Source: Gammaproteobacteria bacterium
Lineage (GTDB): Bacteria; Pseudomonadota; Gammaproteobacteria; Competibacterales; Competibacteraceae
Length of the DNA stretch: 34,642 nucleotides
Direction of reading: 5' to 3'
Assembly: GCA_003562535.1 (NCBI GenBank)
Contig: PWUP01000090.1
Span: 1-34,642, forward strand
In this document: positions 25,449-34,642 of the stretch, piece after piece
Layout of the letters: each line of letters opens with the position of its first letter
How positions within the stretch are numbered: the first letter of the stretch is position 1
Notes under the pieces: generated by a model
What the model saw: the letters and a program-made list of their open reading frames with translations, nothing else
Told to the model about the DNA's origin: nothing
Database searches by the model: none
Program-made: the position numbers and the translations under genes

Positions 25449-25492
25449 TGCGGCCGGCTCCGTATCAATCAACCTAATTGTGAAACCAGCCA

Positions 25493-25508
25493 TGTTTCAC
25501 GTGAAACA
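25493..25508. other. parS-type centromere site (perfect 16-bp palindrome)
   Basis: TGTTTCACGTGAAACA is an exact match to the ParB/Spo0J parS consensus tGTTNCACGTGAAACa. It extends to the 18-bp palindrome ATGTTTCACGTGAAACAT and ends 20 bp upstream of the glyQ ATG. A GTGAAAC half-site lies at 25480-25486. Confidence 0.75.
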
Positions 25509-25528
25509 TTCAAGCCCAACGGAGGGTA

Positions 25529-26449
25529 ATGGTGTACGACCCCAAAACATTTCAGGGCATGATTCTAGCCCTGCAGGATTACTGGTCTGAGCAAGGCTGT
25601 GTCCTAGTCCAACCCTATGATATGGAGGTGGGTGCGGGTACATTCCACCCGGCTACCTTTTTACGGGCTATCGGCCCTGAGCCGTGGAGTTCGGCCTATG
25701 TACAGCCTTCACGCCGTCCTACCGATGGCCGCTACGGCGAAAACCCCAACCGCTTACAGCATTATTATCAATATCAAGTGGTGATTAAGCCGTCACCGAT
25801 TAATTTACAAGAACTGTATCTAGCCTCACTGTACCGTCTTGGCATCGACCCGCTGATTCATGATATCCGCTTTGTCGAGGATAACTGGGAATCACCGACT
25901 TTGGGCGCTTGGGGATTGGGCTGGGAAGTATGGCTTAACGGTATGGAGATCACGCAGTTTACCTATTTCCAACAAGCCGGGGGATTGGATTGTCGGCCAG
26001 TGATGGGTGAATTAACCTATGGTTTGGAGCGCATCGCCATGTACTTACAGGGCGTGGAAAGCGTGTTTGATTTGGTATGGACGGACGGCCCGCTAGGCCG
26101 AGTCACTTATGGCGATGTGTATCATCAAAATGAAGTCGAGCAATCACGCTACAATTTTGAATTAGCCGACACCCAAAGTTTATTTGACTGGTTTGATACC
26201 TGTGAGCGCGAAGGTGAACAACTCATTGAGCAGGGTTTACCGTTACCCGCCTACGAAATGACCTTGAAAGCCTCACACACCTTTAATTTACTCGATGCCC
26301 GCAAAGCGATTTCAGTCACTGAACGCCAACGCTATCTGCTACGGGTGCGTACCATGGCCCGCGCCGTCGCCCATAGTTACTACGCCAGTCGTGAACAACT
26401 CGGTTTTCCCATGTGTGCCAACCCGCAGGTGAATCCTGATGGCCGCTAA
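25529..26449 (+). CDS. glyQ: Glycine--tRNA ligase alpha subunit
   Basis: [18 protein letters not shown]... is very highly conserved in GlyQ. A GGAGGG RBS is present. Confidence 0.97.
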
Positions 26450-28523
26450 CCCTTCCCAGACCCGTGACCTATTGTTTGAGATGGGCACTGAAGAACTTCC
26501 ACCCAATCTGGTATTCAGCCTAGCACACGCCTTACAACAGGCTATCGTGCAAGGTTTGGACAAAGCTCAGCTTGCGCATGGCGAGGCGCAGTGTTTCGCC
26601 ACCCCTCGGCGTCTGGCGGTGTGGGTGGCTGACGTAGCGACTCAGCAACCGGATCAACAGCAGGAACGCCGCGGACCTGCACTGCGAGCGGCCTTCGATG
26701 CTCAAGGCCAGCCCACTAAAGCGGCTCAGGGGTTCGCCCAATCCTGCGGAGTCAGTGTTACGCAACTGGAACGGATGGAAACCGATAAAGGCATCTGGTT
26801 AGTGCATCGGCAACAGCAGCATGGCCAAGCGGCTGAGCGGTTGATTCCTGAACTCATCACTCACGCGGTTGATGCCTTGCCCATCCCCAAACGCATGCGT
26901 TGGGGGGCAGGGGATGCCGCCTTTTCACGTCCGGTGCGTTGGCTGCTGTTATTGTTTGGCGAGCAGGTGATCCCGTTGCGGCTGTTTGCACTCGATGCAG
27001 GTTCTATCAGTTATGGCCATCGTTTTCATCACCCTGATCCACTGACCATAAGCACTGCCCGCACTTATGCCGAACAGTTACATCAGCCCGGCCAAGTGAT
27101 TGCCGATTTTGCCGAACGCCGAGCGCGTATTCATCAGCAAGTCACAGAGATTGCCGCTGCTGCGGGAGGTAAAGCCGTGGTGACTGACGCCTTGCTGGAT
27201 GAAGTGACCGCCTTAACCGAATGGCCGGTAGCGATTCTGGGGCATTTTGAGGAGCGGTTTCTGCAAGTCCCCGCTGAGGCGTTAATCACTACCATGCAAT
27301 ACCACCAGCGCTATTTTCCCGTGGTGGACGCCTCCGGTCAGCTCATGCCGTGTTTTATTGCCATCAGTAATCTCATCAGCCAAGACCCGGAGCAGGTGCG
27401 TATCGGCAATGAACGGGTGATTCGACCGCGGTTTAGCGATGCTGAATTTTTCTGGAATCAAGATCGAGCGCGTCCCCTAGCGGTACGGACGGAACGTTTA
27501 GCCACGGTGATCTTCCAGCAGCAATTGGGGACCTTGCGTGATAAATCACTGCGGGTGCAAACCTTAGCTGTGGACATTGCGCAGCAGTTGAACGCCTCAG
27601 TTGAATTCGCCCAACGAGCGGCTGAGCTGGCTAAATGTGATTTGCTGACCGATATGGTGCAGGAATTTCCTGAGCTACAGGGGGTGATGGGCAGTCATTA
27701 TGCCCGCCACGATGGCGAGCCGGACGAAGTGGCTCAAGCCCTAGAGGAACAGTACCGTCCGGCCTTTGCCGGCGATACCTTACCGCACACACCAACGGGG
27801 CAAATTTTAGCCATCGCCGAACGCTTAGATACTCTGGTGGGGATTTTTGCCATTGGCCAAGCGCCCACGGGGAACCGCGATCCTTTTGCGCTGCGACGTG
27901 CGGCATTAGGTGTCAATCGTATTTTCATCGAATGCCGTTTACCGTTAGATTGTGAAGCGTTACTGCAGAAAGCAGCACAGGCGTACACGTCAGACGTTGA
28001 TGCCGAGTCAGTCATCTCCGAGGTGTTTGACTTCATTTTTGAGCGTCTGCGTGCTTATTATCAGGAACGTGAGGTCAGTGGTGATTTATTTGCCGCAGTA
28101 TTAGCCAATCGCCCGACTCAACCCTTAGATTTTGACCGGCGCTTGCAGGCCGTCAGTGCCTTTAGGGAATTACCCGAAGCGGCTGACCTGATTGCGGCGA
28201 ATAAACGGATTCGCAATATTCTGCGTAAAGTGCCAGGCCCGTTACCGGCTGAACCCGATGCGGCCATGCTCTACGAACCGGTAGAACAAACCCTATTGAC
28301 TCGGATGACTCAGATTACCCCCAGCGTCTCTGCACAGTTAGCACAAGCCGACTATGCCGCTGCGTTAAGTCAACTGGCTACACTGCGTGATCCCGTCGAT
28401 CAGTTTTTTGAGCACGTCATGGTGATGGCCGATGACATCGCGGTACGCAATAATCGCCTGGCACTGTTAGCGCAACTGGATGCGCTATTCAATCAGGTGG
28501 CCGATTTGTCACGCTTGCGTTGA
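26439..28523 (+). CDS. glyS: Glycine--tRNA ligase beta subunit
   Basis: [13 protein letters not shown]-terminus, 694 aa, overlapping the glyQ stop. Confidence 0.96.
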
Positions 28524-28533
28524 GTAGTGTGCT

Positions 28534-29076
28534 GTGAAACTGGCCGTATTAGGTCGTGATGGCGTCATCAACCATGCCGCACCGGAGATTATCCGACGAC
28601 CGGAAGATTGGCACCCTTATCCTGGTAGTCTCGAAGCCATTGCCCGCTTAAACCGAGCGGATTACTTGGTGGTAGTGGCGACCAATCAGCCGGGTATCGC
28701 TCAAGGGTTGATTGATATGGACAGCCTCAATCGTATTCATGAACGGATGCAGCAACAACTGCGCCGCTGTGGTGGCTCCTTGGATGCGATCTTTTTTTGC
28801 CCTGCAGACGATGATACCCATCCTGATCGTAAACCTAACCCCGGTTTACTACTGGCCATTGCTCAACGTTTCGGTGTGGCTTTGGAGAATGTTCCCGTCA
28901 TCGGCGACTGCCTTAAAGATATTCGCGCCGCTCAAGCGGTGCATGCTCAACCCTTACTGGTATTAACCGGCGAAGGCGAGCTGACGGCGGCACGGCTACC
29001 TGAACGCTGCATACCCGTGTTCACCGATTTAGCAGCGGCTGTGGATTATTGTCTTAAAACCGAGGGGCAGGATTAA
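28534..29076 (+). CDS. gmhB: GmhB-like HAD-IIIA phosphatase homologue (D,D-heptose 1,7-bisphosphate phosphatase family) with a degenerate motif I
   Basis: VVATNQPGIA (motif II), RKPNPGLL (motif III) and IGDCLKDIRAA (motif IV) are present, but motif I reads LGRDGVIN instead of LDRDGxIN. It occupies the conserved position after glyS. Confidence 0.75.
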   Translation: MKLAVLGRDGVINHAAPEIIRRPEDWHPYPGSLEAIARLNRADYLVVVATNQPGIAQGLIDMDSLNRIHERMQQQLRRCGGSLDAIFFCPADDDTHPDRKPNPGLLLAIAQRFGVALENVPVIGDCLKDIRAAQAVHAQPLLVLTGEGELTAARLPERCIPVFTDLAAAVDYCLKTEGQD

Positions 29077-29822
29077 TGTCAACGCGGCAACACATCAATT
29101 TAGTGATAAGAGCCTTAGTCTTTTATAGCGGGATGCTGGTCTCTGGTATCCTCATTGGCGCAGTCATCCTAGTGTTTGGATTATGGCGCCCAACATGGAG
29201 CTATGCCCTGTCACAAATGTGGTGCCGTTGGCAAATTGAGTGGCTACGCTGCATCTGTGGTGTGGATTACCAAGTCAGTGGTTGGGATAATGTCCCAGAT
29301 GAACCGGTTGTGATCTTAGCCAAACACCAATCAGCTTGGGAGACGCTGTTTTTACACTCACGTTTACCCCCTGTGGCGTGGGTGCTTAAACGCGAATTAT
29401 TGTGGATTCCTCTGTTCGGTTGGGCAATGACAATGATCGGCCCTATCGCCATCAACCGCAAAGCAGCCAGCTCGGCAATCAGTAAAATTATTGAACAAGG
29501 TCAGCAGGCGTTAGCGCAAGGTCGCAGCGTCGTAGTATTCCCAGAAGGCACCCGCTCAGCACCCGGTCAGCGCGGGCGCTATAAATTAGGTGGGGCTCGT
29601 TTAGCGGCACGCAGTGGTTATCCCGTGGTGCCGATTGCCCATAATGCGGGTGAATTCTGGCGACGCCAGGGCTTTATCAAAACACCAGGCACGGTTCACG
29701 TCGTGGTCGGCCCATTGATTCCGACCCAAGGACTGAGCGCCCAACAAATTAACCAACAGGCTGAGGAGTGGATCGAGCAAACCATGCTAACACTGCCAGC
29801 CGCTCGCTCTGATGAATTATAG
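29076..29822 (+). CDS. plsC: 1-acyl-sn-glycerol-3-phosphate acyltransferase
   Basis: KHQSAWE (HX4-acidic) and VFPEGTRS acyltransferase motifs, with an N-terminal TM segment. Confidence 0.88.
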   Translation: MSTRQHINLVIRALVFYSGMLVSGILIGAVILVFGLWRPTWSYALSQMWCRWQIEWLRCICGVDYQVSGWDNVPDEPVVILAKHQSAWETLFLHSRLPPVAWVLKRELLWIPLFGWAMTMIGPIAINRKAASSAISKIIEQGQQALAQGRSVVVFPEGTRSAPGQRGRYKLGGARLAARSGYPVVPIAHNAGEFWRRQGFIKTPGTVHVVVGPLIPTQGLSAQQINQQAEEWIEQTMLTLPAARSDEL

Positions 29823-29848
29823 GTACGATAGCTTTATCGGGCAGTGAA

Positions 29849-29864
29849 TGTTTCACGTGAAACA
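29849..29864. other. parS-type centromere site (perfect 16-bp palindrome)
   Basis: TGTTTCACGTGAAACA lies within the same 18-mer ATGTTTCACGTGAAACAT seen at 25492-25509, in the plsC/ruvB convergent gap. Confidence 0.75.
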
Positions 29865-29867
29865 TCT

Positions 29868-29883
29868 GGTTTCACGTGAAACC
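29868..29883. other. parS-like site, variant outer bases (perfect 16-bp palindrome)
   Basis: GGTTTCACGTGAAACC keeps the 14-bp core GTTTCACGTGAAAC. Its centre is 19 bp from the centre of the previous site, and it ends 1 nt before the ruvB stop codon. Confidence 0.65.
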
Positions 29884-29884
29884 A

Positions 29885-30925
29885 CTATGGATCAAATAAG
29901 GGCTGTTGTTGATGTTCAGGGCGCTGGGGTTCGGGCAAACCTAAAACCCGATAAGCGTATTGTGTCGCCAGTCGCCCGCGTGGGGTACGCATCAAATAGC
30001 CCTGTTGTAATAAATACGGCTCTAAAACATCTTCAATCGTACCGCGTTCTTCACCCAGTGCTGCCCCTAGGGTATCCAAACCCACCGGCCCACCGGCAAA
30101 CTTATCAATAATCAAACGCAGCAAGCGGCGATCTAACTCATCAAAACCACACTCATCGACTTTCAACATACGCAGCGCTTGCTGTGCTACCTCGCGGGTA
30201 ATCTGGTTATCCGCCCGCACTTGAGCATAATCCCGCACCCGGCGCAGCAGACGATTAGCAATCCGTGGTGTACCGCGTGAACGTCGCCCGATTTCCGCCG
30301 CACCGAGTGGTTCCGCCGCCACATTTAAAATGGCCGCTGACCGTTGGACAATGGAGGTCAGTTCAGCCTCGGTATAAAACTCCAAGCGCTGGACAATACC
30401 GAAACGATCACGCAGTGGCGAGGTTAATAACCCCGCACGAGTCGTCGCACCGACCAAAGTAAATGGGGGAAGATCCAGTTTAATCGACCGCGCAGAGGGG
30501 CCTTCACCAATCATAATATCGAGCTGATAATCCTCCATGGCAGGATATAACACCTCTTCGACCACGGGGCTGAGACGATGGATTTCATCGATAAACAGTA
30601 CATCATGCGGTTCAAGATTCGTCAGCAAAGCAGCCAAATCACCCGGGCGTTCCAATACTGGCCCCGAGGTTTGACGCAAACTCGCGCCTAGTTCAGCCGC
30701 GATAATATGAGCCAGCGTGGTTTTGCCCAAGCCTGGCGGACCGAACAATAACACATGATCCAAAGCCTCTTGGCGTGCCACGGCGGCATGAATAAAAATC
30801 TCTAACTGCTCGCGCAGCACGGCCTGGCCCACATAATCAGCCAGGCGCTTGGGGCGAATGGCTCGATCCAGTGAAACATCATCACTGGCGGCTTCTGCTG
30901 AAATCAAGCGTTCCGAAGGGGTCAT
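29885..30925 (-). CDS. ruvB: Holliday junction branch migration ATPase RuvB
   Basis: [14 protein letters not shown] (Walker A), [19 protein letters not shown]. Confidence 0.97.
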
Positions 30926-31530
30926 CGTTTCACCGTGGCTTGTAGGGCTTGGCGGATAATTTGATCGCTGCTGAGATCGGTACTCTCGATGGCTTTCACC
31001 ATGCGGGCCGCATCCACCGGTTTATAGCCTAAAGTGACTAAGGCACTGATGGCATCTTCAATGGGATCGGGACGCGGGGCCAGCCCAGATTCCGAGCGCG
31101 GTGCTCCACTGCTGACGCCCGCCTCGGGCGCTTGCAGGCGATCACGCATTTCCACCACTAAACGCTCTGCTGTGCGTTTACCAATACCAGGCAAACGCAT
31201 CAATGTGGCCGTATCACCTTCTTGGATGCACCGCGCAAAGGTTTGGGCATTCATGCCGGATAAAATCAGCAATGCGAGTTTCGCGCCCACGCCGGTTACC
31301 CGAATTAGACTGCGAAACAAGCTGCGTTCTTCTAAATCCGTAAAACCGTAAAGCAGATGCGCATCATCGCGCACAGCCAAATGGGTGTAGAGGGTGGCCT
31401 CTTCACCCACATTAGGCAGTTCGCCGAACGTAGTCAGCGACCCCTCCAGTTCATAAGCCACCCCGCCGACATCCACCATCACCCACGGCGGTTGTTTGAG
31501 TAGCACCTGACCGCGCAACCGCCCGATCAC
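30922..31530 (-). CDS. ruvA: Holliday junction DNA helicase subunit RuvA
   Basis: MIGRLRG...V.VGGVAYE, with HhH motifs ([25 protein letters not shown]). The GTG start overlaps the yebC stop (GTGA). Confidence 0.95.
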
Positions 31531-32273
31531 GCCAGTTCCGCCAGTACGTCGTCGGAAAACTCGGCGTTGGAATACACATTCTGGGTGTCGTCTAACTCCT
31601 CTAGCAGATCGAGCAGCTTCAACGCTTTCTGAGCGTCTTCGCCTTCCAGTGCGGCACTACTTTGAGCGCGCAAAGTGATTTCAGCATTCTCAGGCATCAG
31701 CTCAGCCGCCAGCATGGCCTGCTTCACCTGTTCGAAATCAGCAGGCACTGTGAGCACTTCGACTGAACCGTCTTCGCTACTGATGACATCTTCAGCGCCG
31801 GCTTCTAAGGCAACTTCCATAATCCGGTCTTCATCGCTGTCTGGAGGAAAACCAATCACCCCCCGTTCATCGAATTGAAACGCCACCGAGCCGCTTGTCC
31901 CCAGATTGCCACCGCATTTGGAAAAAACATGTCGCACTTCAGCCACCGCACGGTTACGATTATCCGTCATGCAATCGACAATGACTGCCATACCGCCTGG
32001 CCCATAACCCTCATAGCGAATCTCTTCGTATTCAACCCCGTCGAGTTCTCCGGCACCGCGTTTAATCGCCCGTTCAATGGTATCTTTAGGCATATTAGCG
32101 GCTAAGGCTTTGTCCATTGCTAAGCGCAAACGAGGATTAGATTCGGGATCAGAGCCTCCCATCCGACTCGCCACGGTGATTTCCCGAATCATCCGAGTGA
32201 ACACTTTACCTCGCTTAGCGTCTTGGGCTTTTTTGCGGTGTTGAATATTCGCCCATTTACTGTGTCCTGCCAT
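31527..32273 (-). CDS. yebC: YebC/PmpR family DNA-binding transcriptional regulator
   Basis: [23 protein letters not shown] is the canonical YebC N-terminus. Confidence 0.95.
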
Positions 32274-32441
32274 CGCTTATCCTCACAACATCATTGAAAG
32301 TGTGAATATTACCATTGGCGGCGCTGTTTATGCTGAAAGCGTCCGTGATCATTCAGTCCCCTCACCCCAACCCTCTCCCAAAGGAGTGGGCGTTTAAGGC
32401 CGGGGTCTGAACGCTTACGCGACCGAACGGCGCCCATTGAT

Positions 32442-32457
32442 TGTTTCACGTGAAACA
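32442..32457. other. parS-type centromere site (perfect 16-bp palindrome)
   Basis: TGTTTCACGTGAAACA extends to the 20-bp palindrome ATTGTTTCACGTGAAACAAT (32440-32459), between the hydrolase stop and the yebC start. Confidence 0.75.
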
Positions 32458-34214: not shown

Positions 34215-34642
34215 GTGTCTATAACACACCATCATCATCCGTTAACTCGGTTCGGTTTTCGCTTCCACCGGGGAGGAACACACAGCTCCCGAACGATGAT
34301 GCTCGACGAACTGGCCGCACTGCTTGCCTATGTTGACCGTCACGATGCTGTGCAAGGTGACTATCGGCAAGCCATTGAGGCCGACAACTGCTTGGGTAAG
34401 CGCTCGGCAAAGACCCGAAAATTGACCTACCAGCATCTGGTGGATCTGTATGCGCTGGACACCGACACCCTGCTGTTTCGCGCCCTGCGGTATTTTTGGA
34501 CGCGGGATGCAGCAGGTCATGCCTTGCTGGCTCTGCTGTGTACCTATGCCCGAGATCCTATTTTCCGCGCCACAGCTCCACTGATCCTTAATTGCCCGCG
34601 AGGGGCAGTGATCACTAGGGAATCTTTGGAAGAGTATATTGA
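34215..34642 (+). CDS. Hypothetical protein, 5' part (runs off the right edge); possible BrxA-like (DUF1819) BREX component
   Basis: This open frame is missing from the ORF track because it has no stop. It reads ...FRFHRGGTHSSRTMMLDELAALLAYVDRHDAVQGDYRQAIEADNCLGKRSAKTRKLTYQHLVDLYALDTDTLLFRALRYFW...ALLALLCTYARDPIF.... The pattern recalls BrxA (sFt.GgLl.rES...AeL...dW..v...i.edNlLq.Rt.sS.kR). That comparison is from memory only. The start is GTG 34215 or ATG 34296. Confidence 0.4.
   Translation, partial: MSITHHHHPLTRFGFRFHRGGTHSSRTMMLDELAALLAYVDRHDAVQGDYRQAIEADNCLGKRSAKTRKLTYQHLVDLYALDTDTLLFRALRYFWTRDAAGHALLALLCTYARDPIFRATAPLILNCPRGAVITRESLEEYI

Follow-up and report, generated by a model that had tools for sequence, protein, structure and literature searches.

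How would a chromosome be partitioned from a region in which neither partition genes nor replication initiation genes can be seen? This question is raised by a stretch of 34,642 nucleotides (contig PWUP01000090.1, assembly GCA_003562535.1, Competibacteraceae), analyzed over its whole length and hereafter called the window, which carries four palindromes resembling parS, the binding site of the chromosomal partition protein ParB (Spo0J), around the genes glyQ-glyS-gmhB-plsC. Our analysis indicates that these palindromes are very probably genuine chromosomal parS sites, the predicted nucleation sites for a chromosome-encoded ParB of the Spo0J type, and would mark a partition and SMC-loading zone. 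We favor this reading because of the identity of the sites with the consensus, their clustering, their intergenic placement and the conservation of their position in relatives.

The window was searched with the pattern TGTTTCACGTGAAACA, allowing up to three mismatches, and the counts were compared with those of 100 dinucleotide-preserving shuffles. Exactly four matches were found, all inside one zone of about 7 kb (6,965 bp), and the other 27.6 kb held none even at this tolerance. The shuffles gave a mean of 0.12 matches (standard deviation 0.36) and none of the 100 reached four. All four are perfect 16-bp palindromes built on one and the same 14-nt core, GTTTCACGTGAAAC; three match the parS consensus tGTTNCACGTGAAACa exactly and the remaining one, GGTTTCACGTGAAACC, differs at two outer positions only (G...C). 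Genes were called from the open reading frame (ORF) listing and from NCBIfam scans of all substantial ORFs (n = 38), and on this map, as in the sequence itself, all four sites are intergenic. The order in the site region is parS1, glyQ-glyS-gmhB-plsC, parS2 and parS3, ruvB-ruvA-yebC on the minus strand, and parS4 (Table 1). Sites 2 and 3 form a tandem pair, 3 bp apart, that takes up the greater part of the 62 bp separating plsC from the convergent ruvB, and the 193 bp separating a DUF7379 hydrolase-like gene from yebC contain site 4, 169 bp upstream of the start of yebC-ruvA-ruvB. Among the 38 ORFs, no dnaA, dnaN, recF, gyrB, parA, parB or gidA/B was found. A previous sequence-only reading had described three identical copies of the ParB/Spo0J consensus 16-mer and one variant, too many for chance, all intergenic within 7 kb and bracketing glyQS-gmhB-plsC (one upstream of glyQ, two past plsC) in a region devoid of parAB, dnaA and gid genes, and every detail of this description that was checked was borne out.

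The similarity of the sites extends slightly beyond the palindrome. A 21-nt unit (TGTTTCACGTGAAACATTCA plus a flanking A) is common to sites 1 and 2 in inverted orientation with 100% identity, and the flank of site 4 is 95% identical to that of site 1 over 21 nt. Either the perfect sites may have originated from copies of a somewhat longer unit, or ParB may prefer particular bases beyond the palindrome; in the relatives described below, parS flanks favored A/T, and this only at the first base outside the site. An isolated half-site close to site 1 (Table 1) may provide a weak additional ParB contact, of uncertain significance. Half-sites outside the full sites number six in the window for about four expected, which is near chance, and four of the six lie within 25.4-31 kb (25480, 28534, 30871 and 30927).

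The background of the window also bears on the chance origin of the sites. When the parS sites were masked, CACGTG, ACGCGT, CAGCTG, AGGCCT and CGTACG each occurred zero times for 7-11 expected, and ATATAT, ACTAGT and CTATAG were absent as well, the full set of eight being expected at 3-11 occurrences from the dinucleotide composition. That CACGTG is absent outside parS could have pointed to selection against decoy cores or to a specific restriction system; this idea was rejected, since many other 6-bp palindromes are equally absent. The window-wide avoidance may reflect pressure from several restriction-modification systems. With 6-bp palindromes avoided in general, four perfect 16-bp palindromes are therefore even less likely to be accidental, and point to sites maintained by selection.

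Conservation was evaluated in 80 loci totaling 1.18 Mb, obtained by anchoring a scan on GlyS in a collection that holds one genome per GTDB species. These loci were scanned for parS at up to two mismatches, and gyrB, recF, dnaN and dnaA were placed by tblastn with references annotated in one of them (L058). The best loci belonged to Candidatus Competibacteraceae metagenome-assembled genomes (MAGs), with 58-60% identity for GlyS, 84-86% for GlyQ and 50-57% for PlsC, followed by Ectothiorhodospiraceae, Thioalkalivibrio, Thiohalophilus and Methylococcales; this one-per-species collection is without a close sequenced representative of the lineage. The glyQ-glyS-gmhB-plsC block was kept in essentially all 80 loci and its flanks varied. 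We observed about 100 parS matches for about 0.3 expected by chance, confined to the surroundings of glyQS or to positions in or next to recF/gyrB. This excess, together with an invariant core within variable flanks, is the pattern expected for a selected protein-binding site and not for a dispersed repeat. The dispersed, REP-like copies (REP, repetitive extragenic palindromic) that the sequence-only reading had named as evidence against itself were seen neither elsewhere in the window nor outside these two neighborhoods of the 1.18 Mb.

Three arrangements were distinguished among the relatives. The first is Pseudomonas-like: gyrB-recF-dnaN-dnaA lies on the opposite strand within 2-3 kb after the block and two parS are found inside recF, in six loci (Table 1), with single parS sites in three more (L039, L050 and L063). 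The recF pair is kept across Thiohalophilus, Granulosicoccaceae, Kistimonas and unclassified MAGs, in the same arrangement as parS1/parS2 of P. aeruginosa. The second is that of the Competibacteraceae and the window. In 11 Competibacteraceae-like loci (L012, L014, L015, L019, L023, L025, L032, L040, L048, L060 and L079), glyQ is preceded at 120-190 bp by an intergenic parS; the glyS/gmhB gap holds one to four more, and another site or array follows about 7 kb downstream, past lptD-surA, one locus (L040) reaching nine sites in all. The window has its own site at the equivalent place upstream of glyQ, although the surrounding intergenic DNA has diverged. Across 140 half-sites of this group, positions 2-8 (GTT[T/C]CAC) were invariant except for three substitutions and the flanks were unconserved; the outer base was T in 79 and G in 57, so that the G...C of site 3 corresponds to the commonest variant. 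In the third arrangement, seen in Ectothiorhodospira (including a complete genome), Methylococcales and Thioalkalivibrio, no parS was found within 10 kb of the block.

The Competibacteraceae sites near glyS and about 7 kb downstream sit in tandem repeats of 33-43 bp; Tandem Repeats Finder counted a 33-bp unit 3.8 times and a 43-bp unit 2.5 times, and these arrays apparently grow by tandem duplication. They resemble the window in their intergenic parS upstream of glyQ and by glyS-gmhB-plsC, in the core GTTTCACGTGAAAC and in the T or G of the outer positions. They differ from it in that they occupy the glyS/gmhB gap, often as tandem repeats, whereas this gap measures 10 bp in the window and is without parS, and in that the flanking genes are not the same. 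We know of no published description of glyQS-linked parS arrays in Competibacteraceae. A ParB motif search of all 122 fetched loci found none. One locus (L072, NZ_CP194902.1), a 5.3-Mb record of Methylocaldum sp. GT1BB that carries glyQS-gmhB-plsC, is titled 'plasmid unnamed' and is probably a mislabelled chromosome.

Table 1. Positions of the parS sites, related sequence units and gene blocks; positions preceded by a locus number refer to that related locus, all others to the window.
Feature	Position	Strand	Remarks
parS site 1	25493..25508	.	TGTTTCACGTGAAACA, 0 mismatches; 80-bp tatC/glyQ gap; 20 bp before glyQ ATG
parS site 2	29849..29864	.	TGTTTCACGTGAAACA, 0 mismatches; 27 bp past plsC stop codon
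parS site 3	29868..29883	.	GGTTTCACGTGAAACC, 2 mismatches, perfect palindrome; 1 bp from ruvB stop codon
parS site 4	32442..32457	.	TGTTTCACGTGAAACA, 0 mismatches; 10 bp past 3' end of DUF7379 gene
Extended unit, site 1	25492-25513		TGTTTCACGTGAAACATTCA[A]; 4-5 extra shared bases, one flank only
Extended unit, site 2	29845-29865		as for site 1
Extended unit, site 4	32437-32457		as for site 1
Isolated half-site GTGAAAC	25480..25486	.	6 bp left of parS site 1
glyQ-glyS-gmhB-plsC block	25529..29822	+	bracketed by parS1 and parS2/3; NCBIfam
ruvB-ruvA-yebC operon	29885..32273	-	between parS3 and parS4; NCBIfam
parS pair in recF	L029:17561/18179		the six recF pairs are 608-630 bp apart
parS pair in recF	L045:7166/7778
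parS pair in recF	L051:8828/9446
parS pair in recF	L056:18070/18679
parS pair in recF	L058:16591/17206
parS pair in recF	L071:18763/19393
Tandem-repeat parS array	L013:12089-12214
Tandem-repeat parS array	L040:20733-20841
Tandem-repeat parS array	L012:3493-3584
Tandem-repeat parS array	L022:9121-9209

The closest studied counterpart is P. aeruginosa, in which parS1 and parS2 lie in recF and parS3 and parS4 before PA0011 and PA0013, just past glyQ-tag (PMC5521831). Together they bracket gyrB-lptA-PA0006-glyS-glyQ and are ParB loading sites verified by chromatin immunoprecipitation; a single parS suffices for segregation, and ParB spreading lowers the expression of the enclosed genes (PMC5521831; PMC4368675; PMC5098823). 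ParB dampens the genes from gyrB to PA0013, and parS3/4 repress the adjacent promoters (PMC5521831). Both clusters thus consist of four 16-bp palindromes (high-affinity and within about 15 kb in P. aeruginosa) that bracket the same conserved genes (in P. aeruginosa gyrB, lptA/plsC, PA0006/gmhB, glyS and glyQ), with intergenic sites in promoter regions. By contrast, P. aeruginosa has the core GTTCCACGTGGAAC, places two of its four sites within recF and has the cluster immediately beside dnaA/oriC; in the window the core is the one given above, every site lies between genes, one pair stands in tandem and ruvBA-yebC takes the place of the dnaA operon. That the block adjoins gyrB-recF-dnaN-dnaA in Pseudomonas had been put forward in the sequence-only reading; the published map (PMC5521831) and the six loci with recF pairs agree with it. 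The cluster looks like a descendant of an ancestral gammaproteobacterial arrangement, dnaA-dnaN-recF-gyrB ... plsC-gmhB-glyS-glyQ, with parS in or around it. In this organism the dnaA operon no longer adjoins the block.

The 16-mer of the window is also the perfectly palindromic form of the consensus of the B. subtilis Spo0J parS. There the sites are scattered across some 20% of the chromosome around oriC, mostly inside genes, rather than packed into 7 kb. This bacterium is the source of the model in which ParB nucleates, spreads and recruits condensin (PMC7333895; PMC4536313). By homology with this model, a ParB dimer would bind each 16-mer, load cytidine triphosphate, close into a clamp and slide onto the flanking DNA (PMC7333895). 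With sites 2.6-4.4 kb apart, one continuous ParB complex would be expected to cover glyQS-gmhB-plsC and ruvBA-yebC, plus some kb on each side. ParA would segregate the origin region by moving this complex, which would also serve to load SMC (PMC7333895; for SMC loading at parS, PMC4536313). ParB may further mildly dampen transcription at site 1, before glyQ, and at site 4, before yebC-ruvAB, as it does at parS3/4 of P. aeruginosa (PMC5521831). Binding and spreading of ParB, the action of ParA and SMC, and origin proximity are thus what we infer from homologous systems; a cognate ParB would also have to exist, and the cluster would be the main or only one of the chromosome.

Concerning origin proximity, the relatives give a mixed picture. 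In one Candidatus Competibacter locus (L021), gyrB ends about 7 kb upstream of glyQ, and in two further loci of the second arrangement (L048 and L079) gyrB-recF-dnaN begins 0.7-2 kb past plsC; in these three, the glyQS-linked parS therefore lie near the dnaA operon. The other Competibacteraceae loci have phoU, murU, lptD and surA past plsC and no dnaA-operon gene within 10 kb, and in the window this place is occupied by ruvB-ruvA-yebC. It is plausible that the window cluster is near the origin by descent.

Several observations weigh against a partition zone at this locus. The window shows no parA, parB, smc, dnaA or oriC; DnaA boxes (at one mismatch) are seven and scattered, six within genes and one alone at 32277 in the gap upstream of yebC, and the window contains neither a DnaA-box cluster nor an AT-rich intergenic region, its largest gaps (311 and 306 bp) being 54-57% AT. 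All known contigs of the organism are 35 kb or shorter. The flanks of the block in the window (his-tatABC and ruvBA-yebC) are common to none of the 80 related loci, and origin proximity therefore cannot be transferred from the relatives with confidence. The GC skew at fourfold sites is too noisy to assign the window to a replichore, and the sign change of the bulk skew near 30 kb tracks gene strand. The lack of dnaA and parAB from 35 kb is nevertheless no anomaly, because chromosome I of V. cholerae has its three parS at +63, +66 and +69 kb relative to oriC, and parS in P. aeruginosa is functional anywhere within about 650 kb of oriC (PMC5098823). The V. cholerae sites are, like ours, clustered consensus sites without adjoining dnaA or parAB, their flanking genes being different and their origin distance known (PMC5098823), and by this analogy a parS cluster away from partition and initiation genes is normal. 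As far as sequence can carry it, the proposal of a ParB loading and SMC recruitment zone is thus supported, by the consensus, by the confinement to 7 kb and by sites at the same place in relatives. What the window appears to hold is a chromosomal parS cluster of textbook type, from a lineage that is new and uncultured; the cluster is unusual only in its all-intergenic perfect-consensus sites and in the loss of its dnaA neighbor.

The organism is uncultured. Exact PlsC and NudB sequences were found only on short contigs (17 kb or less) of a few metagenomes (ENA ERZ27301262 and ERZ27301263; JGI 3300000362; Logan SRR7083929, SRR7083934 and SRR490155), none of which passes the window ends; an exact look-up of TonB returned no record. 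The JGI contigs, named SL_1KL_011_SED, look like soda-lake sediment. A metagenome scan with the DUF7379 protein returned soil homologues only, at about 40% identity and of no use for synteny. One contig (k141_664446 of ERZ27301262) represents a strain variant, 99.4% identical to the window apart from a cassette of about 1.25 kb that encodes a RelE toxin and an HTH_3 antitoxin and is inserted between plsC and the tandem parS pair (L006:4643-6044, corresponding to window 29771-29883). Bounding this insert is the direct repeat GTTTCACGTGAAACATTCACTGCC, through which a fifth parS (GGTTTCACGTGAAACA) arises. At the right edge of the window, a truncated ORF (34296-34642, plus strand) corresponds to the N-terminal part of BrxA (PADLOC PDLC02450, E = 1.4e-44); a BREX (bacteriophage exclusion) defence island therefore starts about 1.8 kb past parS4. 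All contigs of the organism break near 34.5 kb, where brxA begins, which fits a strain-variable island.

Among the other explanations, only one has real weight, because of the missing dnaA operon. The sites could bind ParB and yet not be the segregation centromere: the cluster, secondary or displaced, would lie far from oriC as a remnant of the split of the glyQS block from dnaA, with ParB acting there mainly as a local transcriptional damper or nucleoid-associated protein. In agreement with this, dnaA-dnaN-recF-gyrB, which adjoins the block in many gammaproteobacteria, is replaced here by ruvBA-yebC; P. aeruginosa possesses six more parS and many half-sites off the origin (PMC5521831; PMC5961200); and its parS3/4 repress neighboring promoters (PMC5521831), the window sites 1 and 4 being likewise in 5' regions. 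However, three perfect sites and one near-perfect site in 7 kb are the signature of a primary cluster, non-centromeric sites being usually single and degenerate, the Competibacteraceae keep larger arrays at the same block (up to nine sites), and parS are origin-proximal in most species (PMC7333895). We consider a displaced cluster unlikely.

A bolder proposal is that the centromere travelled with the glyQS-gmhB-plsC block and became uncoupled from dnaA/oriC, the parS palindromes serving as points of rearrangement or insertion. It fits two observations: the ancestral plsC...gyrB synteny breaks exactly at the tandem parS pair, and a co-occurring strain has its toxin-antitoxin cassette there, bounded by a duplicated 24-nt repeat that contains parS. 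We regard this as quite improbable.

The palindromes might also match parS by coincidence, being RNA or DNA hairpins that terminate or attenuate transcription, or else operators for some unrelated regulator that binds CACGTG. Indeed, the tandem pair between plsC and ruvB folds into a 14-bp RNA hairpin (-25 kcal/mol, z = -5). However, no U-tract follows it, the terminator scan calls nothing at any site, sites 1 and 4, taken singly, are no more stable when folded than shuffled sequence (z of -0.03 and -1.7), and site 1 lies upstream of a gene start and not past a stop. Moreover, the 14-nt core equals the parS consensus in all copies and in the relatives, which a generic hairpin would not need. 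With a strong hairpin at the tandem pair only, lacking a U-tract, and no terminator call, a Rho-independent terminator was rejected, and the wider explanation by hairpins or operators is very unlikely. Finally, a dispersed REP-like or mobile repeat family that is locally abundant has the least to recommend it and is hardly credible: the 21-nt unit of the three perfect sites, with its 4-5 extra flanking bases, and the extra copy bounding the inserted cassette suggest unit copying and not separate origins, but the rest of the window is empty of copies, the related loci have them only at glyQS or recF/gyrB, and neither a transposase nor a longer repeat unit is present. Genuine chromosomal parS sites thus remain by far the preferred reading.

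The remaining genes of the window were identified in the same scans. From the left, they are a potA-like gene, tonB (minus strand), trmL, a MaoC-like gene, an ABC-2 permease, an NAD epimerase (minus), add, a TPR protein, spoVR-yhbH-prkA (minus), purH, an mscK-like channel and glnK-amt-glnK (minus), followed by ubiK-ubiA-hisBHAFIE-tatABC up to the first parS. Beyond the last site come the DUF7379 gene (alpha/beta-hydrolase-like, minus), nudB (minus), a GDSL esterase and the truncated brxA. In the segment 16832-18915 (minus), amt encodes an ammonium transporter of the 'marine subtype' (TIGR03644) with a P-II gene (glnK/glnB-type) on each side, an uncommon double-glnK arrangement. The tonB-like gene (679-1593, minus) has a cobalamin riboswitch upstream of it (1708-1881, minus; Rfam RF00174, 107.9 bits), and this riboswitch overlaps the 5' part of the long TTG-started trmL call (1824-2438). 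Since the NCBIfam match of this call starts only at residue 50, the true trmL probably begins some 50 codons further in.

Overall, the four sites point to the probable zone of ParB loading in an uncultured soda-lake gammaproteobacterium and offer a landmark for orienting a future assembly, with little added beyond annotation. For the family, the link between parS and the dnaA...glyQS segment, known from Pseudomonas, extends into the Competibacteraceae, and individual sites turn over: they are inside recF in some lineages, form intergenic arrays at glyQS in others, and are missing near the block in Ectothiorhodospira and Methylococcales. Should the cluster prove to lie far from oriC, it would provide a natural test of the 'competence zone' idea proposed for P. 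aeruginosa.

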